Shown one piece after another: positions 9,150 to 26,553 of a stretch of 35,043 bases of DNA. Positions within the stretch are counted from its first letter, which is position 1. The number at the start of each line of letters is the position of its first letter. Below the pieces are notes generated by a model, which worked only from the letters and a program-made list of their open reading frames with translations, made no database searches and was not told the origin of the DNA. The position numbers were made by a program, and so were the translations under genes. This stretch comes from Candidatus Woesearchaeota archaeon (GTDB taxonomy: Archaea; Nanobdellota; Nanobdellia; Woesearchaeales; GW2011-AR9). The DNA lies in the NCBI GenBank assembly GCA_013204355.1, contig JABMOA010000017.1:1-35043 (forward strand). Reading direction: 5' to 3'.

Positions 9150-9166
9150 TTTATAAATATTATTTA

Positions 9167-9921: not shown

Positions 9922-10647
9922 TTATTTCACTAATTTTTGTAATTCATCATCTGATAACTTAACGAACCGTTTTTTCTCTGCGTTAATATAAGATGCATCT
10001 ACACGTTCAAAGTTGAAGTCACTACCTAAGAATTCTTTCAAAGCTGATAATCCTAATTTAATTCCTTCTTCAATACTTATATTAGCTTTCCATTTCTTCT
10101 GTAAGATTGGATCAACGATTGCTTCTCCTTCTCCAATGACAGCTGCCCTATGTTGGAAGTATAATCCATATGGTTCTGTGACGAATAATTTAATTGTACC
10201 GTCTTCTTCTACACCACCAACTAATAAAGATACACCAAACGGTCGTAATCCTGCTGATTGTGTGCAGATTTGTTTCAAGTCACAAATATCTTTTACAATT
10301 GATAAAATATCAATCTTAGAATCGTAGGTTACTGCATGTTGCTGTGCTTTTACTTGTGCTCTATCAACTAAAACACGTGCATCTGAAATAATTCCTGCTG
10401 CAGTTGCTGCAATGTGATCATCAATTCTAAAAGTTTTTTCAATTGCTTCTGGCACAACTAATTTTGATCTAATTGGTTTATCAGAAACAAAAACAACACC
10501 ATCTTTACATGTAATTGCAATAGCCGTTGAGCCTTGCCTTACTGTTTTCTTTGCGTATTCTACCTGTAATAATCTTCCATCAGGAGAAAACATTGTAATG
10601 GACCTATCATAGCCCATCTTATCAATCATTTGTTTACTAGGATTCAT
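9922..10647 (-). CDS. psmA: proteasome subunit alpha
   Basis: 241 aa. GYDRSITMFSPDGRLLQVEYAKKTVRQGSTAIAI is the canonical alpha-subunit N-terminal signature. Confidence 0.94.
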   Translation of the reverse strand: MNPSKQMIDKMGYDRSITMFSPDGRLLQVEYAKKTVRQGSTAIAITCKDGVVFVSDKPIRSKLVVPEAIEKTFRIDDHIAATAAGIISDARVLVDRAQVKAQQHAVTYDSKIDILSIVKDICDLKQICTQSAGLRPFGVSLLVGGVEEDGTIKLFVTEPYGLYFQHRAAVIGEGEAIVDPILQKKWKANISIEEGIKLGLSALKEFLGSDFNFERVDASYINAEKKRFVKLSDDELQKLVK

Positions 10648-10663
10648 TATTCACACCTCTTAA

Positions 10664-10978
10664 TTATAATTTTAGACTCGCTTTTTTCAACGTGCCAGAG
10701 ACTATAACTGATTTTAAAATCACTGCCTCGTTTTTAATCTTTTTGATTAAGATAATCCCTGTTATGGTCTCATCAACGTATTGATGATTTACTTTTAATA
10801 TAAATCTTTTGCCCTCAGCCTTTACAAATAAGGGAGATGCTTTAGACATTCCCAATTGACCAAAGTATTTTTCTAATGCTGTTTCTACAGCAAATTTCAA
10901 ATCTAATAAAGAATATTCCTTACTGACATCAAAGACAATGTACCGTTTCTTTTGTTTCAATGATTTCAGGAGTTTCAT
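10664..10978 (-). CDS. rnp2: RNase P protein component 2 (Pop5 / Rpp14 family)
   Basis: 104 aa. The N-terminal LKQKKRYIVFDV motif (KRRYIAFE-like) and the size fit Pop5, and it sits next to psmA as in the archaeal exosome/proteasome superoperon. Confidence 0.72.
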   Translation of the reverse strand: MKLLKSLKQKKRYIVFDVSKEYSLLDLKFAVETALEKYFGQLGMSKASPLFVKAEGKRFILKVNHQYVDETITGIILIKKIKNEAVILKSVIVSGTLKKASLKL

Positions 10979-11592: not shown

Positions 11593-12084
11593 ATGTCATT
11601 AGAAGAAATTACAAATCAAGGCACTAAAAAGGCAGCACTTGTTGATATCGGTAGTAATATCACTTATACTACAATCATAGGGGCTGGAATTGATGCTTGG
11701 ACTGGTTTAAATTTAACTGGAATCGTTGCTGCAAGAACAGCTTCTTTGGGAACGGTCAGCTTGACCTCTGCTCCTTACGGATGGTGGACCGAAAAGGTGT
11801 ATCAATTTACAAGAACAAGAGAAAATGCTAATTTCTTTAGAAAAAGAGCGGTGGATTTGCTTTCATTCAACACTTTTCAAATACCTGTTTATATGACCGT
11901 AGTAGCTGTTGGCTCATTTGTTTCAGAAGGAGAAATAAACACAGAAAAAGTAAAAAATGCAGCTGAAAATTTAGCAATTCTCTCCCCATTTATTGGTCCA
12001 ACACTTGGAGTCTATATGAATATTTGCAGAAAATTGTTTGGTATTAAAACAACTGCAGAAGGAGCATATAACAAATCACCTTAA
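11593..12084 (+). CDS. AlaE-like small membrane exporter (L-alanine exporter family, tentative)
   Basis: 163 aa. Collinear matches, from my memory of E. coli AlaE: PYG after TM2, TFQ.PVY (here NTFQIPVYM) and C-terminal G.Y...CR(R/K)LF (here GVYMNICRKLF). Confidence 0.55.
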   Translation: MSLEEITNQGTKKAALVDIGSNITYTTIIGAGIDAWTGLNLTGIVAARTASLGTVSLTSAPYGWWTEKVYQFTRTRENANFFRKRAVDLLSFNTFQIPVYMTVVAVGSFVSEGEINTEKVKNAAENLAILSPFIGPTLGVYMNICRKLFGIKTTAEGAYNKSP

Positions 12085-12611
12085 ACTCTTCCTTTCCCAA
12101 CTTGATCTTTCAATTGTATCATATGTTGCGCATACTTTTTCTGATGTTCAGCAGGTAATCTTTTGTAATGTTTCTCTAACTCTGTTGTTTTTTCTTGAAT
12201 TTCTTTTACAGTTCCAGAAACTGAATCCGTTAATTTTGTTTCAAATTCTTTGCCTTTTTGAATAAGTTCTTCAATTTTTTTCCGTAATTGCATTAATTTT
12301 AGATAATGATCTTTCTTTTTATCTAATGGCATTTTCAAATAATGTCCATATAATATTTTGTATTCTTTCTTTAAGAATTCTAAAGGGATATCATGTGCTT
12401 TTGCAAGAAGATGTTCAATCTTTTCTTCTAATTTCCTTGCAGAAGTCCATACAGAATGATGAAATACAACAATGCCAAAAATTAAAGTAAGGACTGCAAT
12501 TACACCTAATAATAATTGTAGCCCAGGAGATTCAAGGAAAAGTAATAAAGCCGACGCACTAATAAATACAATAATTAAAACTGTTAACAACCCACCTCGT
12601 TTTGTAATCAT
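12081..12611 (-). CDS. hypothetical membrane protein with cytoplasmic coiled-coil region
   Basis: 176 aa with two N-terminal hydrophobic helices, then a Lys/Glu-rich helical region. Its ATG overlaps the glyS TGA (ATGA). Confidence 0.5.
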   Translation of the reverse strand: MITKRGGLLTVLIIVFISASALLLFLESPGLQLLLGVIAVLTLIFGIVVFHHSVWTSARKLEEKIEHLLAKAHDIPLEFLKKEYKILYGHYLKMPLDKKKDHYLKLMQLRKKIEELIQKGKEFETKLTDSVSGTVKEIQEKTTELEKHYKRLPAEHQKKYAQHMIQLKDQVGKGRV

Positions 12612-14086
12612 TTATTTTCACGTAAGTAATGTAGTAATTCTTTAATTTTTATCCGTTTCTGTTCCGTAGTATCTCTATCCCTCACAGTCACAGATTCATC
12701 TTCTAATGTTTCAAAGTCAATTGTGATACAATATTTTGTTCCATTTTCATCTGCACGCGCATATCGTCTCCCAACAGATGCTGTTTGATCATAAAAACAT
12801 GAGAATTCTTTTCGTACTAAATCATAAACTTCATGTGCTTTTCCAACCACATTGTCTTTATTTTTTACTAATGGAAATACAGCACAATAGAATGGTGTGA
12901 ACTCTGAAGGTAATGCTAACACATCATTTCCTCGCTGTTCGTCTTTATGGTAATTGAGATCTAATAAAGCATAAACATTCCGATCAACACCAAATGATAA
13001 TTCCAACACATGAGGAATAAATTTTTCACCAGTTGTTTCATCTACTACTTCCATTTTTTCTTTAGAAACTTCTTGATGTCCTTTTAAATCATGATCCGTT
13101 CTGTAATGTAATCCACCCATTTCTGTGAACCCTTGTGAATTCAAATCTATTTCAATGTCAAAATGATTTTTGTTGTAGAATGCTTTCTCTTTATCATCTA
13201 ATTCATAGAATCTAAACTTCTCTTTTGGGATTTTAAGAACTTCAAGATAAAATTTTTGAATAACTGCAAGGTGATAGACATAGAATTTAGGTAATCCACG
13301 TTCAACAAGTTCTGTAACACTTCGTTCCACAACCATATTTGATTCACGATCCTCTTGCAACATGACCTGTAAAGGATAATTCTTCACTTTTTCAAAATCT
13401 GGATGTTCATTAACTTTACTAGGATTGAAAAATATTTGTAATTCTGCTTGTGTAAATGCTCTTTGTCGTAACGTCAAACTTCGCGGTGAAATTTCATTTC
13501 GATACGCACGTCCAACCATTGCAAGACCCATTGGAATTTTTTTACGTAATAATTCAAATTGTAATTTGAAATTTACAAAAGGGGATTGTGCTGTTTCTGG
13601 TCGTAAGTATGCTCTTTGAGAACCATCAACGCCTAATTGCACAGGGAACATCATGTTCATGACTTCTACTGGCATCAAATCTGATTTACAATGTGGACAC
13701 TTGATTTTATGTTCTTCAATAAGATTAGATAATTGTTCAGGAGATAATCCTTCAACTCGCTTCTTGATTGCACCTTCAATAAGATGATCAGCTCTGTAAT
13801 TCACTTGACATTCGCTGCATTTCGTAATTGGATCAACAAAATTCTCTAAATGCCCAGATGCTTTGAAAACATTTTCATGCATAATTTCAGATCCTTCAAT
13901 TTCATGAAAATTATCGTGAAGACTTAGAAAGTATCCTCTCCACGCATTTTGAAAATTATGTTTTAGAGAAGTTCCTAAGTGACCATAATCATAGAATCCC
14001 GCTAATCCACCATATATCTCAGAACTCCGATAGATGAAACCCTTCTGTTTACAAAATGTTGCCAATTCTTGTGATGTGTGTGTCAT
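12608..14086 (-). CDS. glyS: glycine--tRNA ligase (archaeal/eukaryotic alpha2 type)
   Basis: 492 aa. FCKQKGFIYRSSEIYGGLAGFYDYGHLG, RPETAQ, class II motifs and a C-terminal anticodon-binding domain typical of GlyRS. Confidence 0.95.
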   Translation of the reverse strand: MTHTSQELATFCKQKGFIYRSSEIYGGLAGFYDYGHLGTSLKHNFQNAWRGYFLSLHDNFHEIEGSEIMHENVFKASGHLENFVDPITKCSECQVNYRADHLIEGAIKKRVEGLSPEQLSNLIEEHKIKCPHCKSDLMPVEVMNMMFPVQLGVDGSQRAYLRPETAQSPFVNFKLQFELLRKKIPMGLAMVGRAYRNEISPRSLTLRQRAFTQAELQIFFNPSKVNEHPDFEKVKNYPLQVMLQEDRESNMVVERSVTELVERGLPKFYVYHLAVIQKFYLEVLKIPKEKFRFYELDDKEKAFYNKNHFDIEIDLNSQGFTEMGGLHYRTDHDLKGHQEVSKEKMEVVDETTGEKFIPHVLELSFGVDRNVYALLDLNYHKDEQRGNDVLALPSEFTPFYCAVFPLVKNKDNVVGKAHEVYDLVRKEFSCFYDQTASVGRRYARADENGTKYCITIDFETLEDESVTVRDRDTTEQKRIKIKELLHYLRENK

Positions 14087-14118
14087 TTGGTTTAGAAGTT
14101 GTTGGGTGTTTATTAAAT

Positions 14119-15153
14119 TTATCCTAGTTTTTGGTCATACTTAATACGGCTATACATAATCATAGAACCATACTCTAAAATATGATCCGAAAATAAATCC
14201 TGAAATTCTTGTACAACATCATGAAACTCATAATTATTCTGGGTAAATATACTTATTTTATAATTCCACATACCAATATAACTTGCTATGAATGCAATAT
14301 TAGGGTGGTTTTTACAAAATGTAAATAATTTTTCTTGATCTACATTTTTTAATTTTAATAACAAAGAATGCCATTGATACCCCATTAGATTAAAATTTAA
14401 TACTACTAAAAATTGCTTAATTACTTTAGATTTAATCAAAGTACGTAAACGATTAATAACTGTGTTTGGCGCAAGTTTTGTTTTTTTCGCAACACCTAAA
14501 ATGGGCATTCTTGAATTTAAGGATAATGCTTTTAATATTTTTTTGTCCACCAAATCCACTTCCTTTTTTGACTGTTTCAGATTGAATTCTTTCATAAAAG
14601 AACTCCCCTTAGCATCTTTAATATTATCTAATTGTGCTTGTAATTCTTTATTCCCAACAATTGCGCCTCTACCCGTGTATTGAGTCGTTACTTGTAATAA
14701 TATATCATAAGAGACTACCAAATTGTCAAATTTTGAAATAAACTCACTAAAAAAAGAATCAAAATGTTCTATTTCTATAGTTGCAACCTCAAACTGAAGA
14801 TTATAATATCCCCCACAATTTTGTACTAAGACAACATTAGAAGAATGATCTAAGTAGGTAATTATTTCCTTTTCCCTTTCAAGATTTTTAAGTCTTAAAA
14901 ATACAGTAAAAATGGTGTAACCTAAACTCCTCAGATTTATATAGGTAATAAATCCAGAAATTACTTTTTGTTCACTTAATTTTTTTATTCTATAACTTAC
15001 AATGTCGCGTGAGATTTTTATTTTTTTAGCAATAGCATTAGTTGAAATCCGTGCATTTTGACCAAGAAGGTATAAAATCTTACGATCTATGAGGTCTAGT
15101 TTAACTGTAGGATTAATATTTTCTATTTGTCCTTTAAAATATTTTTTACTCAT
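14119..15153 (-). CDS. tandem (double) Lrp/AsnC-family transcriptional regulator
   Basis: 344 aa with two HTH_AsnC-like modules (KLDLIDRKILYLLGQNARISTNAIAKKIKISRDIVSYRIKKL and VDLVDKKILKALSLNSRMPILGVAKKTKLAPNTVINRLRTL), each followed by a RAM-like domain. Paralogous to 19843..20916. Confidence 0.8.
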   Translation of the reverse strand: MSKKYFKGQIENINPTVKLDLIDRKILYLLGQNARISTNAIAKKIKISRDIVSYRIKKLSEQKVISGFITYINLRSLGYTIFTVFLRLKNLEREKEIITYLDHSSNVVLVQNCGGYYNLQFEVATIEIEHFDSFFSEFISKFDNLVVSYDILLQVTTQYTGRGAIVGNKELQAQLDNIKDAKGSSFMKEFNLKQSKKEVDLVDKKILKALSLNSRMPILGVAKKTKLAPNTVINRLRTLIKSKVIKQFLVVLNFNLMGYQWHSLLLKLKNVDQEKLFTFCKNHPNIAFIASYIGMWNYKISIFTQNNYEFHDVVQEFQDLFSDHILEYGSMIMYSRIKYDQKLG

Positions 15154-15249
15154 TTTGAAGACAGAAGATTCAGTTTAATATAAAGATTTTGCAAAAAAGA
15201 GGGTTTTTTAAGACAATATCTAATATATTACTAAAAATATAGTAATTAA

Positions 15250-16035
15250 ATGAAAAAAACACTATCTGCAATTATCGGAGGAGTTGTCCTAACAAGCACC
15301 ATCGCATTAGGACAATATGGCATACCACATTTTTTTCCAAAACAAAGGTATAAACAAACAGGTATTGAAACAAAAGTTGCTAATGGACATACATTTGCAA
15401 TACCACTTATTGTAGATTCATGGCAAATACCCTATCAGAATTTATTAAACCAAACACAAAACATCATGAGTGAAGCTGACGGAAAAACAATGAGTTATGG
15501 TTGTGATCAAGGGGTAACAGTACTAAAATTTGGTATTGGGTGTTATGAGAAAGAGTGTTCAAGAACAGAGTATGTTGAAGAATGTACTACATTTAAAGGA
15601 TGTGACCCAAGTGCAGGTTATTGCCCCTCAAACGCGAGAATGGATAGAGAAGTATGCAAAGATGTAAAGAGATGTGTGGAATACGGTTCAAAACAAAAAT
15701 TTTACATTCCTTACGACAGCATGAGTAGTATTTCAAAAGGAAATTCTTTTTTCTCTGATGATGACTTAATTATTAGTACAGATAATGGAGAGGAGTTTAG
15801 TTTTGATTTAAATAGTTCAAGTTCAGCGAGAACTGCGGTGTCTTTGTTAAATATACTAAAATCTGCAAGTTACCATATGGAACAACATACAGAACAAATT
15901 GAAATACAAAGAGATTCAATCTTAGCAAGTTATAATGTTGCTTTAAGACAAGAGAATTTAAATAAAATAAAGGCTGAAGAAAAGTTTAAAAAACTTCCTT
16001 ATGCTGCGAAACAAAAAAATTTGAATGGTGAATAA
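15250..16035 (+). CDS. secreted Cys-rich hypothetical protein
   Basis: 261 aa with a signal-peptide-like N-terminus (MKKTLSAIIGGVVLTSTIALG). A central segment holds 10 Cys within about 70 residues, followed by a C-terminal helical region. Divergent from the tandem-Lrp gene. Confidence 0.6.
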   Translation: MKKTLSAIIGGVVLTSTIALGQYGIPHFFPKQRYKQTGIETKVANGHTFAIPLIVDSWQIPYQNLLNQTQNIMSEADGKTMSYGCDQGVTVLKFGIGCYEKECSRTEYVEECTTFKGCDPSAGYCPSNARMDREVCKDVKRCVEYGSKQKFYIPYDSMSSISKGNSFFSDDDLIISTDNGEEFSFDLNSSSSARTAVSLLNILKSASYHMEQHTEQIEIQRDSILASYNVALRQENLNKIKAEEKFKKLPYAAKQKNLNGE

Positions 16036-16037
16036 AA

Positions 16038-16742
16038 ATGAGACAAAACAAAAGCACAATTGAACAACATTTTAATAATTTAGCTTTTCAAGAACCTACA
16101 AGACCTAACGAATTTTTAAATGATAGGTATAGAGAATGTGCAAAAGCAACAATTGCATCTTTAGGTGTAGGGCTTGCAGGCGCAATCGGCACTTATTTTT
16201 TTGAAAATGACGTTCTTGAAATTTTAGCAGGATTTAGTACAATTACAGGATTAGTAATGGGAGGAACTTTAAGTAGTGAGCTTATCAAAATCAAAAAATT
16301 AAAACCTCAGTTAGAAGAAAAATTAAAAGAAGAACATGACCAGACTAGTTTTTATGAATTAGATGGAAAATTTACAACAAACCCAACCATTGCTGAAAAA
16401 ACTTATGGGCAACCAGTTTATTTGATTGATCAAAATTCAAAAATACCATCCCTTAGCACGCCCCATCTTTTATTTATAGGTCCTCATGAAGAAGGTTCTT
16501 ATCAAAGAAGATTAAGTCAAAAAGTTACTTTTGAAAATATTATTGGACCAGATTATTCTGATAAAATTGAACATACAACTATTTATGAGAACATCTTCTG
16601 TAGATTCCCAGATGAATCAGAAATTAATTTGGTATGTGAACCATCTAATGTTCCTATGATTAAGGAAAAATTTAATGGTGCAATGATTTTATCTGTAAAT
16701 AATGGAACAAAAGCATTTAAGAGATATTTTATCTCTTCTTAA
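16038..16742 (+). CDS. hypothetical membrane protein (two TM helices + C-terminal soluble domain)
   Basis: 234 aa, starting 2 nt after the preceding stop. Hydrophobic helices lie around ATIASLGVGLAGAIGTYFF and LAGFSTITGLVMGGTL. Confidence 0.55.
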   Translation: MRQNKSTIEQHFNNLAFQEPTRPNEFLNDRYRECAKATIASLGVGLAGAIGTYFFENDVLEILAGFSTITGLVMGGTLSSELIKIKKLKPQLEEKLKEEHDQTSFYELDGKFTTNPTIAEKTYGQPVYLIDQNSKIPSLSTPHLLFIGPHEEGSYQRRLSQKVTFENIIGPDYSDKIEHTTIYENIFCRFPDESEINLVCEPSNVPMIKEKFNGAMILSVNNGTKAFKRYFISS

Positions 16743-16748
16743 TTAAAT

Positions 16749-16805
16749 TTATTTTTTCAACCACCCAACTTCTTCACTAGTTAACTCCAATTCCTCCAGA
16801 ATGTA
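16749..16805 (-). pseudogene. relic 3' end of a replication factor C large-subunit gene
   Basis: The minus strand reads ..YILEELELTSEEVGWLKK*, versus the true rfcL C-terminus ..EIAHELELTGEEVGWLRK*. 35/45 nt are identical, including a perfect 16-mer TCAACCACCCAACTTC (16757-16772 = 17533-17548). Confidence 0.65.
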
Positions 16806-16891
16806 GAAGTTGATGGAGATCTATTAAGGTTTTTGCGTAATTTATAAAAATGAAGCAAAAGTTTTTTAAAAGGATTCAATAAATAATTTTT

Positions 16892-17509
16892 ATGGGAGTA
16901 ATGGAAACAGTTGGAGATTCAAATTCAAAGTATTTAGACGCACTTCATAGGCATACAGAAGAAAGTCAGTCTTCTCGATGGAACAATTATCGTGAAATAC
17001 CTCTTTTAAACCTAAGAAATGATAATTCTTTGACAACAAGAATTACAGTTAGTCTAATTAATAGATGCGTTAATTCAGATTACATTAAAAATGCTCGATA
17101 TCTCATGATAGGTTATGCTCGGCGTGGATTTCATGATGCTGAAAATGTCTTAGTGTTCAACCCTTCTGATTTTGAAACTGTACGTATTCCATTTGCACAA
17201 CCCATTCCAGATTTAGATGTATATGCACCTACGTTTCAAGCAGTACAAGAAATGGGAGAAGAACGCCCCCTTGTTACACCACGAGGAGAACATTATATTG
17301 ATATTCCTGTTTTAAAAAGATGGTTCTGGGGAGCATATTCCACTAATATTGGAGATTTTTGGGAACAATTTAATGACTCATCTCCAAAGAATCATGCAGA
17401 AGACAATCATATTTCATTCTATACCAGACGTTCTGATGGACGTGTTGCCTGGATGCACTTTCCCGTTTCTTCAGAATCTTCAATTGAAGAGAAAGTAGGT
17501 AGAATTTAA
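16892..17509 (+). CDS. hypothetical protein (orphan cargo between the two rfcL 3'-end copies)
   Basis: ATG-initiated 205-aa ORF. No family recognised and no TM segments. Confidence 0.5.
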   Translation: MGVMETVGDSNSKYLDALHRHTEESQSSRWNNYREIPLLNLRNDNSLTTRITVSLINRCVNSDYIKNARYLMIGYARRGFHDAENVLVFNPSDFETVRIPFAQPIPDLDVYAPTFQAVQEMGEERPLVTPRGEHYIDIPVLKRWFWGAYSTNIGDFWEQFNDSSPKNHAEDNHISFYTRRSDGRVAWMHFPVSSESSIEEKVGRI

Positions 17510-17524
17510 AAAATCTTCATCCAT

Positions 17525-18709
17525 TCATTTCCTCAACCACCCAACTTCCTCCCCAGTCAATTCTAACTCATGTGCAATCTCTTTCCCACTTCCATTACGA
17601 AAAATCTCACGTAAATAAGGAAGTTGTTGTGCTGCTACTTTTGTGGATGTGTGAGTTGCAACTGCTAACTTTGCAACGATTTCTTTCTTCTTGGCATTTG
17701 ACATATTTGATTGCCAAATTCTTAAGAGTCGCATGGTTGGTTTGTAGTGGACGAATTCTGGATTACGTTCTTCTTTTGCTGAACTAATCCCTGCCGTTAA
17801 TAGATTGTACATATATGCCAAAAATCGCCAATGTTGACGTCTTCTTATTCTTCCCTGGAATACATCTGCACGTGCAAGATGTTCATATGCTTTTGCTAAA
17901 GATTTCGGATCCTTGTATTCTTTAGGAAGATTATGGTCCATCCACAAAAAGACCTCGTTTGGTTGTAAGTCTACTTGATCTAATGCTGGAAGCGCGTTAT
18001 CTACAGAAGATGATTTGAAAATAATTTGTAAAGCACTCACAATTGATTGCGTTCGTTTTCTATCAGACAAACCTACAACTTTCTCAAATGTTAATTCTTT
18101 ACCGCAAGTTTGAAGGTCAATTAATGCACCACGTAAATCTCCATCAACTTGTCTTGCTAATGAATTGATTGCTTTTTCATCATGTTTAATATTTTCTTGC
18201 TGACAAATCCATGTTAATGCATGTGCAATTGTTCTATATTGTAATTTGTGGAATTCAATTTCTTGTGATACTTTTTTCAATGGTTTTAATTTTGCATCAA
18301 AAGGATCGTTTGCGGTTAGAATTATGGGAAACGAGGATTTCTCAATTGCCTTCACAATTGCAGGCACACATCCTCTATCTTTAACACCAGAAACATTATC
18401 AATCTCATCTATCAAGATGATCTTTGGTTTGAAGAATAAGGATTGTTGACCTAATGCGGAATCTAAGAATGATTTGATGTTATCTGCTTTTCTTAAATCT
18501 GAAGAATTGATTTCAAGCACATCAAAATCCAACTCATTTGCTAATGCATACACGGAACTTGTTTTTCCATTTCCAATTGGACCATATAATAATGCTGCTT
18601 TCAGTTTATGCGATTTATAATTCACAATGAAATCTTTCAGTTGTGACACTGCTAATTGCTGTCCAAATACTTGTGCAGATGTTTTAGGCGCATATTTATA
18701 GGTATACAT
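17525..18709 (-). CDS. rfcL: replication factor C large subunit
   Basis: 394 aa. YKYAPKTSAQVFGQQ, Walker A (LLYGPIGNGKTS), LIDEID Walker B and the RFC-large C-terminal helical domain. Confidence 0.9.
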   Translation of the reverse strand: MYTYKYAPKTSAQVFGQQLAVSQLKDFIVNYKSHKLKAALLYGPIGNGKTSSVYALANELDFDVLEINSSDLRKADNIKSFLDSALGQQSLFFKPKIILIDEIDNVSGVKDRGCVPAIVKAIEKSSFPIILTANDPFDAKLKPLKKVSQEIEFHKLQYRTIAHALTWICQQENIKHDEKAINSLARQVDGDLRGALIDLQTCGKELTFEKVVGLSDRKRTQSIVSALQIIFKSSSVDNALPALDQVDLQPNEVFLWMDHNLPKEYKDPKSLAKAYEHLARADVFQGRIRRRQHWRFLAYMYNLLTAGISSAKEERNPEFVHYKPTMRLLRIWQSNMSNAKKKEIVAKLAVATHTSTKVAAQQLPYLREIFRNGSGKEIAHELELTGEEVGWLRK

Positions 18710-18730
18710 ATGATATTTTTACAAAAGGAA

Positions 18731-18739
18731 GTTTAAATG
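18731..18739 (-). promoter_or_regulatory. putative TATA box of rfcL (leaderless-type spacing)
   Basis: The minus strand reads CATTTAAAC, centred about 26 nt upstream of the rfcL ATG. The same spacing is seen at guaB, valS and the 19202 gene. Confidence 0.4.
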
Positions 18740-18753
18740 GTTTGCGGTAATAC

Positions 18754-18875
18754 GGCTCTGTCCCAAAAGGAATAAAAATGTATACTAGGGCACGGCACCT
18801 TAGATTTGTTCACACGTGAACAAATATGCCTCCATTGGCGCTAGTATACAAATTAGCTCCTTTTGGGACAGCACT
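18754..18875 (-). mobile_element. palindromic MITE-like element, copy A (strand = orientation homologous to B+ and C+)
   Basis: Nested inverted repeats: CTGTCCCAAAAGGA/TCCTTTTGGGACAG, TGTATACTAG/CTAGTATACA and ATTTGTTCAC/GTGAACAAAT. Flanked by the direct repeat GGTAATAC (18746-18753 and 18876-18883). Its core is homologous to copies B and C. Confidence 0.6.
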
Positions 18876-18884
18876 GGTAATACA

Positions 18885-19088
18885 TTAAAGATTCTTAAGA
18901 TTCCAAAGAACCAAAAATATACTAATAATAGAAAAAAACATGATTATCTTATTTTCTAATTTATTTCCAAGACCAATGTCAATAAAATTAAAATTAGGGT
19001 TAATTAACGCGACAATAAACGTCAAGGAGAAAATAAATAATAATGAAGCCAAAAGAATGAACACTTTTTTACGGTATAGATGAGACAT
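18885..19088 (-). CDS. possible small membrane protein (67 aa, two hydrophobic helices)
   Basis: ORF trimmed to the internal ATG (MSHLYRKKVFILLASLLFIFSL...). Extremely AT-rich and hydrophobic, so it could be spurious. Confidence 0.3.
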   Translation of the reverse strand: MSHLYRKKVFILLASLLFIFSLTFIVALINPNFNFIDIGLGNKLENKIIMFFSIISIFLVLWNLKNL

Positions 19089-19171
19089 AATGATAGGATT
19101 TTGGTAATATATCTTAAATGTATGCGTTATAAAAAGCACATGTTCGAATATCGTACATTTTGAGAATAAGG

Positions 19172-19181
19172 TTTATAAAAA
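19172..19181 (+). promoter_or_regulatory. putative TATA box for the 19202 gene
   Basis: TTTATAAAAA centred about 25 nt upstream of the ATG at 19202. Confidence 0.4.
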
Positions 19182-19201
19182 AGAACATAAAATTTATCTC
19201 C

Positions 19202-19777
19202 ATGTTACAGAAGCTAGATGATCTCATCTTAACAATGCATGAAAAAGTGGTGGACCTTGCAATCAAAACTGTTGGCGCAGATAAATATTCATGTGCGACA
19301 CAAGCCAATATTGCGGGAACTCTTGGACTTTTAAGTTTTGGTGGAACCCTATTAGAAAGCGGCATTAGAAACTCCTCTCCTTTTTTAATTAGCATGGCAT
19401 GCGTTATAGGACCTATATCTATTATTTCTTATAAAAAAGGTTTAAGGGATATCAAACCACAAAAAAAAATTGATGAAAATAACGCATTAAAAGGAACACG
19501 CCAAATCCCTCAATATAACACAACCCGCCCATTTTTTTGGAGTTTAGGAACTTATGCCATACTCTCTAGTCCATTTTCAGAAACTATTCCAACATTATTA
19601 ATAGCTGGTTCCCTTGGGTTATACTTATCTGGCAATGAAAGTAGGAAATATTTTTTAAATGTTGAAACACCTTCCGGAACGACAGATTCTTTATTAGATA
19701 AATTAAAAGCAGGAATCTCAAATATTGGATCAGAACCAGTTAGGGTTTCTGCTTTGAAATATGAAACCAAAGAATAG
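19202..19777 (+). CDS. hypothetical integral membrane protein
   Basis: The track ORF starts at a TTG (19160); the first ATG (MLQKLDDL) has a TATA box at the right spacing. About 4 hydrophobic segments. No family recognised. Confidence 0.5.
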   Translation: MLQKLDDLILTMHEKVVDLAIKTVGADKYSCATQANIAGTLGLLSFGGTLLESGIRNSSPFLISMACVIGPISIISYKKGLRDIKPQKKIDENNALKGTRQIPQYNTTRPFFWSLGTYAILSSPFSETIPTLLIAGSLGLYLSGNESRKYFLNVETPSGTTDSLLDKLKAGISNIGSEPVRVSALKYETKE

Positions 19778-19842
19778 GAAAAATCATTTATTTATTCAGA
19801 AATATAATTGGTTCAAACTATGTTCGAATTCAAAAATACGAC

Positions 19843-20916
19843 TCATTTCACTTTTTGATAATATTTTAATTGATTAAACATTATAAAAGTGTCATAATAC
19901 ATAATATGATCTGCAAATTCCTTTCTGATTTGTTGTAGGATTGCATGAAATTCAGCATTTGTCCTAGCATAAACGTTACATTGATAATCCCATTTTCCTA
20001 AAAATCGCATGTACCAACTCATATTAGGATGATTTTTAATAAATTCAGTGAATCTTTCATGATCTAAATTTTTCATTTTGAATAGAATATGCCACCATTG
20101 ATAACCTAATTGCGTTGGTGAATATTGGATAAAAAAACGTTTTATAACACCAGCCAAAATCATGTCCTTAATTCTATGTTCAATACTAATTGGTGCTAAT
20201 GATATTTTGTGAGAAATGTGTTTAATATTTGAGGTGGAGTCTAATTTTAAAATATCTAAGATAGAGAGATCCTTATCATCTAAATTTATTTTTTCATTCA
20301 TGTTATTATTTATTTTGTGATTTAAATTTTTCTTTTTAAGAAATTCTTTTTGGAAGGTAGAACCTTTATGTTCCCCCACAATTTTTACCTTTTTTACATC
20401 ATCTTCATGAAGAATCATCCATAACACAAAAATATCCTCTTCTACAACATCCAATACTTCAAATTTTTCAAGAATAGAAGAATACTTTTCAACTATTTTT
20501 CCAAATTTATCTATAAACTCCATTTGGTTCCTAACACTCAAAACAAATTGAAGATCATAACTTCCAGAACAAGTAACTATGGTTGTAACCTCAGTAAAAT
20601 TAAATAAAAAAGCAATGATATCTTGATCATTATCCAAATTTTTAAATTTAAAATAAACACGATATTGATGGAATCCCAATTTTTTAGGATCAAGCATAGC
20701 AGCATATCCATGTACAAAATCTATTTCTTCCATTCTTTTAATCCTATATGAAACCTTTTCACGTGATATTAAAAGAAGTCTACCGATTGTAGTTGGTGAG
20801 AATCGCACATTATTTTCAAGAATATAAAGAATTTTACGATCTATTAAATCTAATTTAATTAGTTTTTTCTCAAAAGAATATTCCTTGATCTGTCCAATAA
20901 AATCTAATTTTGCCAT
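19843..20916 (-). CDS. tandem (double) Lrp/AsnC-family transcriptional regulator, paralog of 14119..15153
   Basis: KLDLIDRKILYILENNVRFSPTTIGRLLLISREKVSYRIKRM plus a second HTH module (DDKDLSILDILKLDSTSNIKHISHKISLAPISIEHRIKDM). The C-terminus FIKNHPNMSWY..W.Y......N.EFH parallels the other copy. An alternative GTG start lies at 20934. Confidence 0.8.
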   Translation of the reverse strand: MAKLDFIGQIKEYSFEKKLIKLDLIDRKILYILENNVRFSPTTIGRLLLISREKVSYRIKRMEEIDFVHGYAAMLDPKKLGFHQYRVYFKFKNLDNDQDIIAFLFNFTEVTTIVTCSGSYDLQFVLSVRNQMEFIDKFGKIVEKYSSILEKFEVLDVVEEDIFVLWMILHEDDVKKVKIVGEHKGSTFQKEFLKKKNLNHKINNNMNEKINLDDKDLSILDILKLDSTSNIKHISHKISLAPISIEHRIKDMILAGVIKRFFIQYSPTQLGYQWWHILFKMKNLDHERFTEFIKNHPNMSWYMRFLGKWDYQCNVYARTNAEFHAILQQIRKEFADHIMYYDTFIMFNQLKYYQKVK

Positions 20917-21041
20917 ATTTTTTACTAAAAACACATATCCCTTAACTATTTATCGTTATTCGTGGTTTTTTTGGGTTCTTATTTCTTATATTTGTTTGGA
21001 GTTTACCATTCTAGAAAATCAATTACTTTTGGAGGAAACAA

Positions 21042-21401
21042 ATGAAAAAAACAATTGAAACAATGATCCTAGCAATGTCTGTTACCCTGGCTTTAGGATG
21101 TGACTCTCAAGGAGAAAAAGAATCATGTTCTATTATAGATCAAAGTAAAGATAATTGTTATAAAAATGATGGAACAAATAAAGACGGGTCATTAAGTTAT
21201 ATCAATGCATGCTTTGGAGATCAAAAATGTAAATCTACAAAACCAATCGGCACATCTGATGACTATTGTTTTAGTGAATGTTACACACCAACTTGTTGTA
21301 GTGAGAGAAACTGCGATACAGATCAATACTGTACTACAAATCCCTATGATTCTAACCAATGTATTTGCGAATATAAACCAATCCGTGATAAAGGAAATTA
21401 A
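21042..21401 (+). CDS. secreted or lipid-anchored Cys-rich small protein
   Basis: 119 aa. GGAGG lies upstream of the ATG. Signal peptide ends in a lipobox-like LALGC; the mature part has about 16 further Cys (CCSERNC, CICEY). Confidence 0.6.
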   Translation: MKKTIETMILAMSVTLALGCDSQGEKESCSIIDQSKDNCYKNDGTNKDGSLSYINACFGDQKCKSTKPIGTSDDYCFSECYTPTCCSERNCDTDQYCTTNPYDSNQCICEYKPIRDKGN

Positions 21402-21422
21402 AAATAAGGGAAATTGAAAAAA

Positions 21423-21779
21423 ATGTCATATGAAGATAAATTAGAACCTCTAGAAAAAATTGGAGCCGGCACTGTAGCAATTTTATATGGTACATTACTA
21501 AGTGTGGTACTTTATTTGAGTATTCACACTAAGGAAATCAAAAACCCTACTATAACTAACGTGGGAACATATCACTTAGTATTCTATGGTGAAACTATAT
21601 ATCTCAATGAACTACAAAAAACAATTAATGTAGATTTCCACGATAAATGTTTAAGACCTGCAGACAAATATTTCAAAGAAAAAGATAAGGATATAATTGG
21701 TCAAAAAATAAAATCTATTACGTATAGATATGGTTTTTCTGGGCCTTGTGATTACATTGAAGATTTAGTGCTAGAATAA
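21423..21779 (+). CDS. small membrane-anchored two-Cys protein, paralog 1
   Basis: One TM helix (GAGTVAILYGTLLSVVLYL) followed by an approximately 80-aa domain with INVDFHDKCL ... ITY ... CDYIEDL. The track ORF starts at a TTG (21414). Confidence 0.5.
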   Translation: MSYEDKLEPLEKIGAGTVAILYGTLLSVVLYLSIHTKEIKNPTITNVGTYHLVFYGETIYLNELQKTINVDFHDKCLRPADKYFKEKDKDIIGQKIKSITYRYGFSGPCDYIEDLVLE

Positions 21780-21854
21780 ATAATTTAATATTAAAAACAG
21801 AAAAAGAAACAAATCAAAAAGAAACAAACAAAAAATATAAAACCAATAATAAAT

Positions 21855-22193
21855 ATGAAACATACACAAAGATTATCAAAACTTGGAAAAGATATTTTGA
21901 TTCTTGGCACTTTAGGATTAATAGGATATGGAATTTATGAGGTAGGATTTGCGTCAAAAAACATACAAAATTCTGTTGTTGAAGAGATAGGAGATTATAG
22001 AGCATATATTGATCTTGAAAATCCAAGCCTTGATGAAACACATCATTACATAAAAATAGATAATCATTCTAGATGTTTAGATCTTGGAGATTATAATTCT
22101 CAACACATTGTAAAAAAAGATCAATTTAGTGTGATCACATATACTCCTAAAATATTTCAAAGATGTGATGAGATTATATACCTTCAAAAATAA
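21855..22193 (+). CDS. small membrane-anchored two-Cys protein, paralog 2
   Basis: One TM helix (ILILGTLGLIGYGIY) followed by IKIDNHSRCL ... ITY ... CDEIIYL. Same architecture as 21423 and 23498. Confidence 0.5.
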   Translation: MKHTQRLSKLGKDILILGTLGLIGYGIYEVGFASKNIQNSVVEEIGDYRAYIDLENPSLDETHHYIKIDNHSRCLDLGDYNSQHIVKKDQFSVITYTPKIFQRCDEIIYLQK

Positions 22194-22264
22194 AATGAAA
22201 ATCTTAAAACACAATTACCAAACAAAGCAAGATCCGAGATATTAAACTAATTTAGGAATAAAAA

Positions 22265-23335
22265 ATGATAACCTCAATTAATAATTATGAAAGAATTCCT
22301 GGACAATGGTTAACTATTGAAACTTTACATGCACCACAACTATTACCACAATTACAAAAACCAACGATTATTAAATATGCTTCACAGAATCCACAAAAAG
22401 GGTCACGATGGATTGTAACACTACAACATGCTAATGAATCTAGTGGATTATATGCTTGTGTGGACACATGGAAATATTTAAATGAAAAAGATATCAGTTT
22501 AGATTATGATTTATATTTTCTTATAATGAATGGATATGGAGCCATTGGAAAAGAAAATAGCGCAATTTTTAGTCAAAGGTTTACATCAGATCAAATAGAC
22601 TTCAACAGAATTTGGTATGATTACAAGGATAATATCCAAAAAAAGATTCCCGCAATACAAAAAACACAAATTGAACAATTAACACAAATAATTAATAATT
22701 CTAACCCGGAATATATTATAGATGTTCACAATACAACTGGTAATAATCAACCATTAGGGTTTATTTCAGAAGGAAAAGATGAACAATTAATCTGTTTTCT
22801 AGTTGACCACATTGTACATTCAAATAATATCCCTGGATCACTACAAGATAGATTTGCACATATTTGTGAATCAATAACAATTGAATGCGGAAAAACAGGA
22901 ACTTTAGCATCATTACATGTAGCCACAAAAATATTTCACCAATTTATCCATTACAAAGGACAAAAAAAAGAAGATGAAAAAAGATATTACAGGTATAATG
23001 ATATAGGAAGGATTGTGATCAAAGATAATATAGAATTTAATTTTTATAACGGCCAGAAACAAAAAAAAGAAGATAACACATTTTGGATTAGAGAGGACAT
23101 TGAGGATTTCAATCAGTCTCAAATAGAACCTTTTTCCCTATTAGGACATTATAATGGACCAGGATTACCTGTGATTTTTTTAAAAAATGATCAAGATCTA
23201 ACGTCATCCTATATTTTAAAAGATGGAAACAAAGTTATAATTAAAGAAATGCGTTATGGGTTATTATTTTCAAAAAATAAAACAAATGTCCAAAATTCAG
23301 AATTAGGTTATTTAGCTCAAGGAAAATTTAGCTAA
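22265..23335 (+). CDS. AstE/AspA-family zinc hydrolase (succinylglutamate desuccinylase / aspartoacylase-like)
   Basis: 356 aa. Collinear matches to aspartoacylase motifs, from memory: LQHANESSG (GTHGNELTG), DFNRIW (DLNRIF), IIDVHNTTGN (FDLHNTTSN) and ITIECGKTG (GIEVGPQ). Confidence 0.7.
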   Translation: MITSINNYERIPGQWLTIETLHAPQLLPQLQKPTIIKYASQNPQKGSRWIVTLQHANESSGLYACVDTWKYLNEKDISLDYDLYFLIMNGYGAIGKENSAIFSQRFTSDQIDFNRIWYDYKDNIQKKIPAIQKTQIEQLTQIINNSNPEYIIDVHNTTGNNQPLGFISEGKDEQLICFLVDHIVHSNNIPGSLQDRFAHICESITIECGKTGTLASLHVATKIFHQFIHYKGQKKEDEKRYYRYNDIGRIVIKDNIEFNFYNGQKQKKEDNTFWIREDIEDFNQSQIEPFSLLGHYNGPGLPVIFLKNDQDLTSSYILKDGNKVIIKEMRYGLLFSKNKTNVQNSELGYLAQGKFS

Positions 23336-23497
23336 AAATCGGCCATATAGAAATGCTGAAGTTATTAATGCAATAATTAATTAACACTGTCTAAAAAAAT
23401 AACATTTAAATAATTATTTAAGAAACATCAATAAGAAGAAAAAGAAGAAGAAGTTAAAATTGACGAAGAAATTGTAAAAAAGAAAAAATGATTCAAA

Positions 23498-23875
23498 ATG
23501 ATTCAAAACAATAAATTTGTAACAACGGTACTAGCATTAACTCTTGGTTTAACCTATTGTATTTATGATTTTAAGGATAACAGGAGAATACAAGAAGATA
23601 CAGTTACCAATTATTACTCTACCAATGTTCCTGGAAAAAACTTAGAACCTTATAAAATTATAAAAATATTTCTTGAAAATCATGATCGTTGTTTATTTAC
23701 TACAAACTATCTATTTGAACAGATATCCCACCAAGAAATAAATAAGGGGGATTCACTCACAGAGATCATCTATCACCACAATCACTTTTTGAGCCCTATT
23801 GGATCTTTAGATAAAGTTGCATTCCAAAATGACTGCGACCGCTTAATAAATTTTGAATTGAAAAAGGTAAAATGA
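23498..23875 (+). CDS. small membrane-anchored two-Cys protein, paralog 3
   Basis: One TM helix (FVTTVLALTLGLTYCIY) followed by IKIFLENHDRCL ... IIY ... CDRLINF. Confidence 0.5.
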   Translation: MIQNNKFVTTVLALTLGLTYCIYDFKDNRRIQEDTVTNYYSTNVPGKNLEPYKIIKIFLENHDRCLFTTNYLFEQISHQEINKGDSLTEIIYHHNHFLSPIGSLDKVAFQNDCDRLINFELKKVK

Positions 23876-23921
23876 TCTCAAAAAATAACACCTAAGAAAT
23901 TAAAACCTAAATTTTAAAATC

Positions 23922-24902
23922 CTATCTCCCTGTTCTCATGTCAATCCGATGATCGTATTCATCTACGATTTCCCCTACGATTTCTTCAAGAACATCTTCC
24001 AATGTAACAATGCCTGTAAATTTACTTACCTTACCATGAACAATAAATAGATGCATTTTTTTCTTCTTAAACAAATTCAGAACTGTGCCCAATTTATGTA
24101 TTTCACTAATTGTATGAACTTCGTGCCTCATTATTTCTCCTGCTGTCGCATTAGAATTTATTTTGACAGAAATTAAGTCTTTAACATAAAGTATACCAAC
24201 GACTTTATTTTTAGTGTTACCATACACAGGAATTCTTGAATGCCCCATTTTATAAATTTCCTTACGTAATTCTTTATTTAAAATTGCAGATTTAGGTAAA
24301 CTAAAGACATTAATTTTGGGTGTCATGACTGATTTTACCTTCATTGAAGAAAATTCCAATCCTCCTTCAAGAATTTCAAACTCATGTTTATGAACATCCG
24401 TTTCTAATTTTCTTTGTTCTTTTAAAATTAATTTAAATTCTTTCCGGGAAAAAATTGTAGGTAATTCTCCACCTAATGCCCTATCTAAAATAAGAGCTAT
24501 AGGTTTAGAAATAGGATATAGTAAAATCAAAAAAAACCACACAATCCATGTGATCTTTGCCCCAAACTTTAAAGCGTGTCTTGAAAAGACTGCTTGAGGA
24601 ATAATTTCTCCAAAAATTACAATTAAACCTGTTGCCATAAATCCCGCAACAACACCTGTAACGATTGAACCTAAAAATAATGCTAATGCTGAGTTTACAG
24701 CAACATTCCCTAAAAGTAATGTAATTAAAAGAAGATTTCCTTTTTTTCTTAAAGGATAAACACGCATTGCCGCTTTATTACCAAGTTTAACTCGTCTTCT
24801 CAAACTAAATAAATCTAAACTCATTAGTCCTAAACTTAAACCAGAAAAAAGCCCAGATAAGATTAATATACAAACAACAATAATGTATGTTACAAAGGTC
24901 AT
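23922..24902 (-). CDS. DUF21 + CBS-pair membrane protein (CNNM/CorC-type putative Mg2+/Co2+ transporter, hemolysin-family)
   Basis: 326 aa. DUF21 N-terminus (ILSGLFSGLSLGLMSLD), 4 TM segments, IFGEIIPQ, then two CBS motifs. No C-terminal CorC_HlyC domain is visible. Confidence 0.85.
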   Translation of the reverse strand: MTFVTYIIVVCILILSGLFSGLSLGLMSLDLFSLRRRVKLGNKAAMRVYPLRKKGNLLLITLLLGNVAVNSALALFLGSIVTGVVAGFMATGLIVIFGEIIPQAVFSRHALKFGAKITWIVWFFLILLYPISKPIALILDRALGGELPTIFSRKEFKLILKEQRKLETDVHKHEFEILEGGLEFSSMKVKSVMTPKINVFSLPKSAILNKELRKEIYKMGHSRIPVYGNTKNKVVGILYVKDLISVKINSNATAGEIMRHEVHTISEIHKLGTVLNLFKKKKMHLFIVHGKVSKFTGIVTLEDVLEEIVGEIVDEYDHRIDMRTGR

Positions 24903-24958
24903 GTTTTTAATTAATAAAAATTAAGAAGTATATAATGGTTACTATTAACTCCACACCA

Positions 24959-25089
24959 GGCTAATATGAAACCCTCTTTTTCTTTTGTATTAGCGCCCTG
25001 GCGTAGCCGAGGCATATGGGATAGCAAAGCTATCCCCATAATAAATGCCGTGCCCTAATACAAAGATTGTTGAGGGCTTTATATTAGCC
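24959..25089 (+). mobile_element. palindromic MITE-like element, copy B
   Basis: Arms GGCTAATATGAAACCCTC / GAGGGCTTTATATTAGCC, TTTTGTATTAG / CTAATACAAAG and GGGATAGC / GCTATCCC. Flanked by a perfect 9-bp direct repeat TCCACACCA (24950-24958 and 25090-25098). Confidence 0.65.
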
Positions 25090-25101
25090 TCCACACCAAT
25101 A

Positions 25102-25112
25102 ATATATATAAA
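25102..25112 (+). promoter_or_regulatory. putative TATA box of guaB
   Basis: ATATATATAAA centred about 28 nt upstream of the ATG at 25135. Confidence 0.45.
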
Positions 25113-25134
25113 CCAAAACACTTCAATTTCTGAC

Positions 25135-26553
25135 ATGGAAACTGGCTTGACGTTTGCTGACGTATTACTTGTTCCAAAGAGAACACCATTAAATTCTAGA
25201 AGTGAGGCTGATACAAAAACAAGATTCACAAGAAATATTCCATTACACATTCCCTTAGTATCTTCTAATATGGCAACGGTCACTGAATATCGTATGGCCA
25301 TTGCAATGGCAAGAGAAGGCGGCCTTGGAATCATCCATCAATTTAATACAATAGAAGAACAAGTTGCAGAAGTGAAGAAAGTTAAACGTTCTACCAGTTA
25401 TGTGATTGAAGATCCAATTACCGTACCTCCACACATTACAATTAAAGAAGCAATTGAAACCATGAATAAAACGGGTGTTACGAGTCTTCTTGTTTCTGAA
25501 AACAAACAGTTAAAAGGTATATTTACACACCGTGATTATTTATTTGAACAAGATGATTTAAAATTAATTTCTGCTGTGATGACACCATTTGAAAAAATGA
25601 TTACAGCAAATCCACATATAGAAATGACTGAAGCAAAACGCATTCTTCATGAACACAGAATTGAAAAGTTACCATTGATTGAAAACGGGGAAGTAAGAGG
25701 ATTAATCACAACAAAAGATATCCAGAAACTTGAACATTGGCCACATTGTACACGTGATGAGAAAGGAAGATTAAGAGTCGGCGCAGCAATAGGCGTAAAA
25801 GATTCTTTAGAACGTGCACATGCATTAATTAAAAGCGGCGTTGATGTTCTTGTTCTGGATGTTGCACACGCACATTCAGATTTAGTCATTGAAACATTAA
25901 AAGCATTAAAAGCAAATTTTCAAATTGATATTATGGTTGGAAATATTGCAACAGCTAATGCAGCAAGAGATTTGATTGAAGCAGGTGCAGATGGTTTGAA
26001 AATTGGGATTGGACCTTCCCCTGTATGTACAACAAGAATTATTTCAGGATCTGGCGTTCCACAAATTTCTGCAATCATAGATGTTGTCAAAATTGCAAAC
26101 CAATATAATATTCCCATAACTGCAGATGGTGGCATGAAATATCCAGGTGATGTTGCAAAAGCAATTGCAGCAGGAGCTTCTACAATTTATTCAGGAAATT
26201 TCTTTGCAGGTACAGATGAAGCGCCTGGAGTTATTATGATGAAAGATGGAAAACGCTACAAGAGATATATGGGTTCAGCTTCATATGATAGTGGTCATGA
26301 AAGAAATGAACATGCAAATAAGAAAAAAGTACGAGAGCGTTTAGATATTTTTGTAGAAGGAGTTTCAACATTAGTTGATTATAAAGGGCCTGTTGAAGAT
26401 GTTATTAAGAGTATTATTAAAGGATTGCAAAGTGGTATAAGTTATTGTGGTGCAAGAACCATTAAAGAAATGCAAGCGAATGCAGAATTTATAAAAATTA
26501 CAGCAGCTGGGTGGAAAGAATCACAATCCAGAGGGGAGAAGTTAAGTGAATGA
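25135..26553 (+). CDS. guaB: IMP dehydrogenase
   Basis: METGLTFADVLLVPKRT N-terminus, an internal CBS pair, the catalytic loop GIGPSPVCTTR, and GGMKYPGDVAKAIAAGA. Start moved from 25045 to 25135 because the extension runs through element B and IMPDHs begin at ..GLTFDDVLL. Confidence 0.93.
   Translation: METGLTFADVLLVPKRTPLNSRSEADTKTRFTRNIPLHIPLVSSNMATVTEYRMAIAMAREGGLGIIHQFNTIEEQVAEVKKVKRSTSYVIEDPITVPPHITIKEAIETMNKTGVTSLLVSENKQLKGIFTHRDYLFEQDDLKLISAVMTPFEKMITANPHIEMTEAKRILHEHRIEKLPLIENGEVRGLITTKDIQKLEHWPHCTRDEKGRLRVGAAIGVKDSLERAHALIKSGVDVLVLDVAHAHSDLVIETLKALKANFQIDIMVGNIATANAARDLIEAGADGLKIGIGPSPVCTTRIISGSGVPQISAIIDVVKIANQYNIPITADGGMKYPGDVAKAIAAGASTIYSGNFFAGTDEAPGVIMMKDGKRYKRYMGSASYDSGHERNEHANKKKVRERLDIFVEGVSTLVDYKGPVEDVIKSIIKGLQSGISYCGARTIKEMQANAEFIKITAAGWKESQSRGEKLSE

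Follow-up and report, generated by a model that had tools for sequence, protein, structure and literature searches.

Organization of the rfcL-GlyRS locus

The DNA analysed here, referred to as the window, is the stretch of 35,043 nucleotides from position 1 to 35,043 of contig JABMOA010000017.1 (assembly GCA_013204355.1), whose host is an archaeon of the Woesearchaeota/Nanoarchaeota (DPANN), and the region under study lies between rfcL, the gene of the large subunit of replication factor C (RFC), and the gene encoding glycine--tRNA ligase (GlyRS). The rfcL gene (17525-18709, minus strand) is intact and encodes a protein of 394 aa with Pfam AAA and RFC lid domains, which reaches 352 bits against the equivalog model NCBIfam NF003229 (cut-off for an RFC large subunit, 280) and is 89-91% identical to its orthologues in Woesearchaeota/Nanoarchaeota. 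GlyRS (12608-14086, minus strand; NCBIfam NF003211, 507 bits) follows rfcL downstream as its conserved neighbour. Both genes are 3.4 kb apart in the window, and this interval contains an open reading frame (ORF) of 205 codons, ORF205, on the plus strand, a relic of the rfcL 3' end, two further plus-strand genes, g234 and g261, and an Lrp/AsnC regulator gene on the minus strand. Read in the direction of rfcL, the order is: rfcL with its functional end (F), ORF205 in the opposite direction, a relic of the GlyRS promoter and spacer (S'), the relic of the rfcL end (E', also R), g234 and g261 in the opposite direction, the Lrp/AsnC gene in the direction of rfcL, and the working GlyRS promoter and spacer (S''), which leads into GlyRS. 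Two units are recognizable, both of which begin on the left with an rfcL end and finish on the right with a GlyRS promoter; each flank occurs twice, and the flanks meet in reversed order. The S'|E' junction is the only one without precedent.

Related rfcL loci or contigs are named here L001, L002 and so on, and homologous proteins or loci P0002, P0012 and P0013. The closest relatives by amino acid identity of the rfcL product are L017 (91%), L001 (90%), and L002 and L018 (89% each), with about 82% identity at the DNA level for all of them. In 11 of 18 related loci (L002, L004, L005, L008, L017, L019, L021, L022, L024, L026 and L029) the rfcL stop and the GlyRS start are separated by only 26-62 nt on the same strand; the two genes are neighbours in the majority of relatives, and a conserved promoter with the form AAAAAC(C)TTAATAA is present in most of the spacers. 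The slot between the rfcL stop codon and the B recognition element (BRE)/TATA box is only 3-5 nt wide. Other relatives show genes in this slot: six genes in 4.5 kb in L001, including those of a 302-aa protein and a 353-aa Lrp-like protein; a single gene in each of L007 (129 aa), L009 (208 aa), L010 (150 aa, Lrp-like) and L012 (164 aa); and genes encoding an AAA_28 protein and a GFO_IDH_MocA oxidoreductase in L053. These cargos are unrelated across lineages, and kinship is detectable only between g234 and the 302-aa protein and among the Lrp proteins. The window and L001 have the island, whereas L002 and L017 lack it, a distribution that contradicts the unrooted quartet (window, L002 | L001, L017), which argues that the content of the slot turns over independently of phylogeny. 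To judge from these comparisons, the adjacency of rfcL and GlyRS is the ancestral state and their junction is a recurrent gene-content hot spot in the clade.

The window sequence is metagenomic, and one rival explanation is an assembly chimera of two co-occurring strains with different slot fillings. Positions 11671-19020 of the window are matched at 100% identity by a Logan contig of 7350 nt from another sequencing run (L016/L051, run SRR28106091), which spans the entire structure with both junctions inside. In a second run, SRR28106031, two contigs are 100% identical to the window as far as 17225 and 15826, where they end, and consequently the S'|E' joint is not covered in that run. These ends fall within ORF205 and g261, not at the rfcL-end and spacer positions at which two strains would diverge, and a false S'|E' join requires a k-mer common to the start region of GlyRS and the 3' region of rfcL, which are unrelated sequences. 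An assembly artefact is unlikely, and a chimera of two strains in particular is extremely improbable.

Relics of the rfcL end and of the GlyRS promoter

A repeat finder located a direct repeat of 47 nt at 16747-16793 and 17523-17569, with 37 of 47 positions identical and a spacing of 776 nt; the best 47-mer match in 300 shuffles of the window reached 29 of 47. The functional copy (17523-17569, minus strand) comprises the final 14 codons of rfcL and the stop (..HELELTGEEVGWLRK and stop). The relic E' (16749-16796, minus strand; EELELTSEEVGWLKK and stop), delimited by the repeat finder, frame reading and alignment, is outside any long ORF. Its minus-strand translation, (E)ELELTSEEVGWLKK and stop, keeps the stop and 12 of the 14 residues of the functional end, HELELTGEEVGWLRK and stop, and stop codons crowd its frame just upstream. 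Most probably this second end is non-coding and rfcL remains intact. The original prediction, made from the sequence of the window, had described a duplication of the rfcL end in direct orientation, which the repeat and the shuffles bear out; its location was correct and its length was not, since each copy contains 14 codons and the stop (45 nt), or 15-16 codons with an extra E. A distance of 6 nt separates the stop of the relic from that of g234 (16742), and the suggestion that the relic stop looks like an original gene end agrees with this tight convergent spacing, which seems native. L001 has the same type of arrangement, with the rfcL stop 1 nt from the stop of a convergent gene.

A second relic, overlooked in the original prediction, occupies the 33 nt that adjoin the 5' side of the rfcL-end relic, on the same strand. 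Side-by-side comparison of the flanks shows CAAAAACCTTAATAGATCTCCATCAACTTCTAC immediately 5' of E' on the rfcL strand, and this segment (S', 16804-16836, minus strand) corresponds to the rfcL-GlyRS spacer by a shared 13-mer and by alignment: it contains the BRE/TATA promoter of GlyRS and the sequence downstream of it (..ATCAACTTCTA). The promoter 13-mer AAAAACCTTAATA is found at 16834..16822 on the minus strand, a single occurrence in the window, and in four relatives, once per locus and only just upstream of GlyRS (position 11650 in L001, 7196 in L004, 7194 in L005 and 3814 in L017). The working promoter and spacer S'' (14087-14118, minus strand; ATTTAATAAACACCCAACAACTTCTAAACCAA), whose BRE part is overlapped by the stop of the Lrp/AsnC gene, has CAACTTCTA in common with S' in the alignment, and the divergence between S' and S'' is about 34%, a value that, like the divergence of the two rfcL ends, is typical of comparisons between species of this group. 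Similarity of S' to the GlyRS spacer stops at ..CTTCTA, 6-9 nt short of the expected GlyRS ATG, and similarity to rfcL starts right after S', at GAG (Glu at position -16 of rfcL). The single novel S'|E' joint is at about 16797-16803 (minus strand), where CATTCTG is of ambiguous origin. Since the distal end of the 776-nt unit copies the chromosomal rfcL-GlyRS spacer, the unit is a complete allele made of an rfcL end, a cargo gene and a GlyRS promoter. That an insert had brought its own replacement rfcL end, as had been proposed, is consistent with the presence of the functional end and ORF205 in one 776-nt unit, which contains one real ORF and no integrase gene.

From the bracketing repeats the original prediction had deduced an attL/attR-like integration, in which a mobile element with ORF205 and an rfcL-like attP site was inserted site-specifically by an integrase that acted in trans or was lost later, with the 16-mer as core. 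A one-gene insert that restores its target gene is indeed bracketed by diverged direct repeats with a perfect 16-nt stretch, TCAACCACCCAACTTC, which was correctly identified at 16757-16772 and 17533-17548. However, this 16-mer coincides with the conserved EEVGWL codons, with 15 of 16 positions identical in L001 and 13-14 of 16 in orthologues of 70% identity, and as a conserved coding stretch it can be explained without a recombination core. The distal 33 nt of the insert are chromosomal GlyRS promoter and spacer, not element DNA. No integrase or transposase gene was found in the window, whose remaining genes are housekeeping genes, and it contains no tRNA or other Rfam family; the insert holds only ORF205. 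No second rfcL end was found in about 30 related loci other than those of this genome, and a degenerate 45-nt pattern for ELELT[S/T]EEVGWLKK and stop gave 0 matches in 185,579 GTDB species genomes. HMMER, run in full over 1.84 billion representative proteins, found five homologues of ORF205 (28-36% identity), each in a different archaeal context without a conserved neighbour, and only low-complexity matches were found as bracketing repeats around their loci. No relatives of ORF205 were found in IMG/VR viral contigs or in the species genomes, and ORF205 gave no match in Pfam, PHROG, PADLOC or NCBIfam. Nothing connects ORF205 to mobility, and integration of a mobile element is very improbable. 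For annotation, the practical lesson is that a diverged duplicate gene end does not in itself indicate an integrated element.

The functional end and the relic differ at 10 of 45 nt (about 22%), with one, two and seven differences at codon positions 1, 2 and 3, respectively (15 of each): 47% of third positions differ against 10% of first and second positions (Fisher p = 0.009). The whole rfcL gene shows a comparable profile between the window and L002, with 0.11, 0.05 and 0.38 differing at positions 1, 2 and 3. This divergence is, by its pattern, of coding type and at the level of orthologues, in agreement with the earlier proposal that both copies diverged as coding sequence in different genomes. 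An all-random null for the 10 differences gave P = 5.5e-5, which overstates the case against duplication in situ because the functional copy gathers synonymous changes anyway; comparison by codon position and polarisation with outgroups are the fairer tests, and their results continue to speak for two coding histories. By outgroup polarisation, the relic's own inferred changes are mostly synonymous. At position -16 the relic has Glu, which is ancestral and also present in P0012, P0013, L004 and L012; the functional end and L002 share a derived His, and L001 and L017 a derived Ser. The ancestral Glu in the relic and the derived His that unites the functional end with L002 mean that the two ends come from different lineages. 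In the final 100 nt of rfcL, five derived sites are common to the window and L002 and none supports the alternative grouping. Both relics are barely decayed: the stop of E' is intact, and the 13-mer of S' is identical to those of L001, L004, L005 and L017. Differences at the level of orthologues in relics that have barely decayed point to an old divergence and a recent juxtaposition, and it appears that the two units evolved as working loci in separate lineages and were joined recently.

An origin in situ would consist of an old tandem duplication, within one genome, of the segment that extends from the rfcL end through the GlyRS promoter, after which the two copies would have lost or gained different genes. 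A tandem duplication would leave precisely the S'|E' order as its novel joint, and the L001 island has a g234-like gene beside rfcL and a divergent gene beside the GlyRS promoter; since both gene positions are seen there, an ancestral island could have held both cargos. However, ORF205 shows no similarity to g234, g261 or the 344-aa Lrp/AsnC regulator, and the flanks have diverged by about 21% in the repeat and 34% in the spacer. Even decay is expected of a non-coding relic, but the differences between the two ends cluster at third positions at the level of orthologues, the changes assigned to the relic are mostly synonymous, and the relic has the ancestral Glu where the functional end and L002 share His. 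The promoter 13-mer of S' is perfect despite the 34% divergence from S'', and at least three events are required. This origin is improbable.

Probable recombination between related loci

Two alleles of the locus in tandem, connected by one illegitimate joint, very probably account for the structure. The locus is probably a recombination scar in the rfcL-GlyRS hot spot, produced by homology-facilitated illegitimate recombination (HFIR) with DNA of a related Woesearchaeon. In this process, DNA of a related Woesearchaeon with a different slot filling would recombine with the resident locus, one side being joined by homology and the other by an illegitimate join, and the incoming filling would be added instead of replacing the old one, leaving a truncated gene end and a spare promoter at the joint. 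One polarity is slightly favoured: an L002-like donor would give rfcL from about nt 300 to its end, ORF205 and S' to an island-bearing, L001-like recipient, with a homologous crossover inside rfcL and an illegitimate join 16-17 codons before the stop of the recipient rfcL, which would displace E' and its island. The same product would result from the mirror polarity, with GlyRS as the anchor and with the island and E' as the imported part. The specific route anchored in rfcL is put forward tentatively, as a possibility somewhat short of even.

The rfcL gene of the window is a mosaic. In nt 1-300, derived sites group the window with L001 and L017 by eight to one, and in nt 301-1185 with L002 by 21 to six (Fisher p = 0.0007), with a breakpoint near nt 290, at about window position 18420. 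Pairwise identities show that it is the window, not L002, which switches partner in rfcL. The affiliations of GlyRS are also patchy, which suggests that recombination is general in the group and that the rfcL breakpoint may belong to another event. On these affiliations, homologous recombination at this locus seems common among Woesearchaeota that have diverged by about 15-20%.

Several points weigh against the proposed recombination. Neither parental allele (rfcL-ORF205-GlyRS or rfcL-g234..Lrp-GlyRS) was found in any collection searched, and for this reason the history of two parents is deduced from one recombinant. Homologous recombination at 15-20% divergence is expected to be inefficient, and microhomology at the joint can be assessed only with the parental sequences. 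The ends of 45-48 nt are too short to name the resident, with the relic identical to L002 at 39 of 48 positions and the functional end at 37 of 48. The breakpoint in rfcL cannot be attributed to the same event, given that GlyRS is patchy too.

A Campbell-type addition leads to the same topology, and the intermediate is the sole difference: part of a relative's locus, either the 776-nt unit (rfcL end, ORF205 and S') or a unit of 2.7 kb (E', g234, g261, Lrp and S''), would have formed a small circle, which one homologous crossover, located in the rfcL end or in the spacer, would have inserted. The direct repeats of the rfcL end and of the spacer bracket either unit as a single crossover would leave them, and S'|E' would be the junction of the circle. 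However, the homology available for a crossover is very limited (some 45 nt at 78% identity, or some 35 nt at 66%), there is no hint of how so small a circle would form, and no free form was found among viral contigs or species genomes. The addition of a circle is therefore rather unlikely, although less so than the other alternatives.

HFIR has been proposed to push old 3' gene ends downstream in the type VI secretion system (T6SS) and Rhs arrays of V. cholerae (Kirchberger et al., 2017; PMC5361080), an article which cites de Vries and Wackernagel (2002) and Prudhomme et al. (2002) for this process. The rfcL locus shows the corresponding elements: an intact gene with a replacement end, a truncated old end past the new cargo, and ends that are orthologous and come from different lineages. 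As in the arrays of T6SS effector-immunity, Rhs and contact-dependent inhibition (CDI) genes, a conserved 5' gene body would act as the anchor for homology, the incoming module would supply a new 3' end with its downstream gene or genes without an integrase, and the former 3' end and the genes after it would be moved downstream and kept. Unlike in those arrays, the presumed anchor is a housekeeping replication gene with a conserved 3' end and no toxin/immunity logic, the scar also holds the displaced promoter of a downstream core gene, and the host is an uncultivated DPANN archaeon with one displacement and no array.

Flexible genomic islands and insertion hot spots between core genes are known in prokaryotic pangenomes. 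The rfcL-GlyRS junction resembles them in that two normally adjacent core genes flank lineage-specific, unrelated and phylogeny-incongruent cargo, and differs from them in that the slot has 3-5 nt and two fillings are stacked with relics of both flanks. The likeness to integrative elements at gene 3' ends is limited to the partly diverged direct repeats that bracket an insert and to the intact gene; here there is no recombinase, the insert ends in chromosomal spacer, the putative core can be explained by conserved codons, and the arrangement does not recur. The event is of a known kind and the locus is a new example of it, unusually legible since both flanks left relics. DPANN archaea are uncultivated and their gene exchange is known almost only by inference; the locus would be one of the few places where a single event of this kind can be read in a Woesearchaeon, with the flanks of both parents, a gene end and a promoter, at one joint: the resident version would have received a foreign one beside it, by recombination without mobile-element machinery and between partner lineages diverged by about 20%. 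The hot spot is also useful for strain-level comparison and for the search for accessory genes of fast turnover.

There is a slim chance that the scar is not inert, with S' firing into the relic, or that the slot is a true site-specific target. The spare promoter S' is apparently intact and points into the relic, antisense to g234, and its transcription may give a short antisense RNA against g234. Alternatively, S' may produce a leaderless mini-transcript with a TTG-initiated ORF of 13 codons (MELTSEEVGWLKK), whose product would reproduce the conserved tail at the C terminus of the RFC large subunit, the region in which archaeal proteins of this type carry their PCNA-binding motif. As for the slot, a recombinase encoded elsewhere may target the 3-5 nt that separate the TATA box of GlyRS from the rfcL stop, which would explain the presence of cargo at exactly that position in so many lineages.

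Cargo genes and neighbouring features

The cargo of the first unit, ORF205 (16892-17509, plus strand), is predicted to be a cytoplasmic alpha/beta protein. The family defined by its HMMER homologues shows the motifs RGFH, DF and SFY.KRSDGR.GW.YFP, and this conservation indicates that ORF205 is a real gene and a member of a rare archaeal family. Its upstream region (16837-16891, plus strand) contains the TATA-like sequences TTTATAAAAA and TTTTTAAAA and is probably its promoter; the layout resembles that of the divergent gene and GlyRS promoter pair of L001. A word-index homology search with ORF205 gave only ORF205 itself. The AF2 model (pLDDT 66, pTM 0.68) shows N-terminal helices followed by a mostly beta-strand region; its Foldseek search against the PDB gave nothing better than E = 0.1 with a TM of about 0.1, and a profile search of PDB sequences gave no match. 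ORF205 is absent from all related rfcL loci and is thus not a conserved syntenic neighbour of rfcL, the arrangement that would have spoken against an insertion. The G+C content is 0.36 in ORF205, 0.32 in the window and 0.35 in rfcL, and the rise in the 3' half of rfcL is uninformative because it is common to all relatives. The closest homologue, P0002 (265 aa, 36% identity; 8001-8798 in L039/L040), has a C-terminal extension whose coding sequence shares 14 nt with the 3' end of a convergent gene encoding a KH/beta-CASP (aCPSF1-type) ribonuclease (8785-10674); no duplicated gene end was found at this locus.

The cargo of the second unit (14119-16742, mixed strands), defined from the ORF list and Pfam, contains three genes: g234 (16038-16742, plus strand), which encodes a membrane protein; g261 (15250-16035, plus strand), whose product is Cys-rich and has an N-terminal hydrophobic segment; and the double Lrp/AsnC regulator of 344 aa (14119-15153, minus strand). 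The slot of L001 holds a related and highly diverged island, in which the 302-aa protein is 30% identical to g234 and the 353-aa Lrp is 35% identical to that of the window. No relatives of g234 were found in an index of 5.8 billion proteins or in IMG/VR viral contigs. The final codons of g234 contain an 8-bp stem (AAGAGATA/TATCTCTT), and the oligo-T run past the g234 stop is the antisense of the KK-stop codons of the relic (window 16718-16740 and 16749-16758). The relic may have been retained partly as supplier of the g234 terminator.

Two paralogous double Lrp/AsnC regulators, 33% identical, flank rfcL: the 344-aa regulator at 14119-15153 and one of 363 aa at 19843-20934. Each of them adjoins small membrane or orphan genes. 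The Lrp of the L001 island (9281-10342) is 47% identical to the upstream paralogue and 35% to the Lrp of the window island, and L010 has a single-domain Lrp (7215-7667) in the rfcL-GlyRS slot. From this distribution, modules of Lrp and small membrane proteins look like recurrent accessory cargo of the clade.

On the other side of rfcL, the gene encoding IMP dehydrogenase is about 900 nt upstream in L053 (3697-6000), an 83%-identical relative, and about 6.3 kb away in the window (25045-26553). The window segment between both genes (18710-24950) contains g205b, Lrp2, three small ORFs, and genes encoding an AstE/AspA-like protein and a CNNM/CBS protein, and it looks like a second variable region. 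A very stable hairpin of 114 nt (window 18755-18875) is located 50 nt upstream of the rfcL start, with arms of 34 nt at 18758-18791 and 18838-18871 and a folding energy of -56.3 kcal/mol (z = -8.1 against shuffles). Its Rfam matches are only to a generic hairpin (miRNA precursor), far below threshold. The hairpin lies within about 385 nt that are missing from L002 at the same position, is found only in contigs of this organism, and is a candidate for a palindromic element like a miniature inverted-repeat transposable element (MITE) or for a structured RNA.

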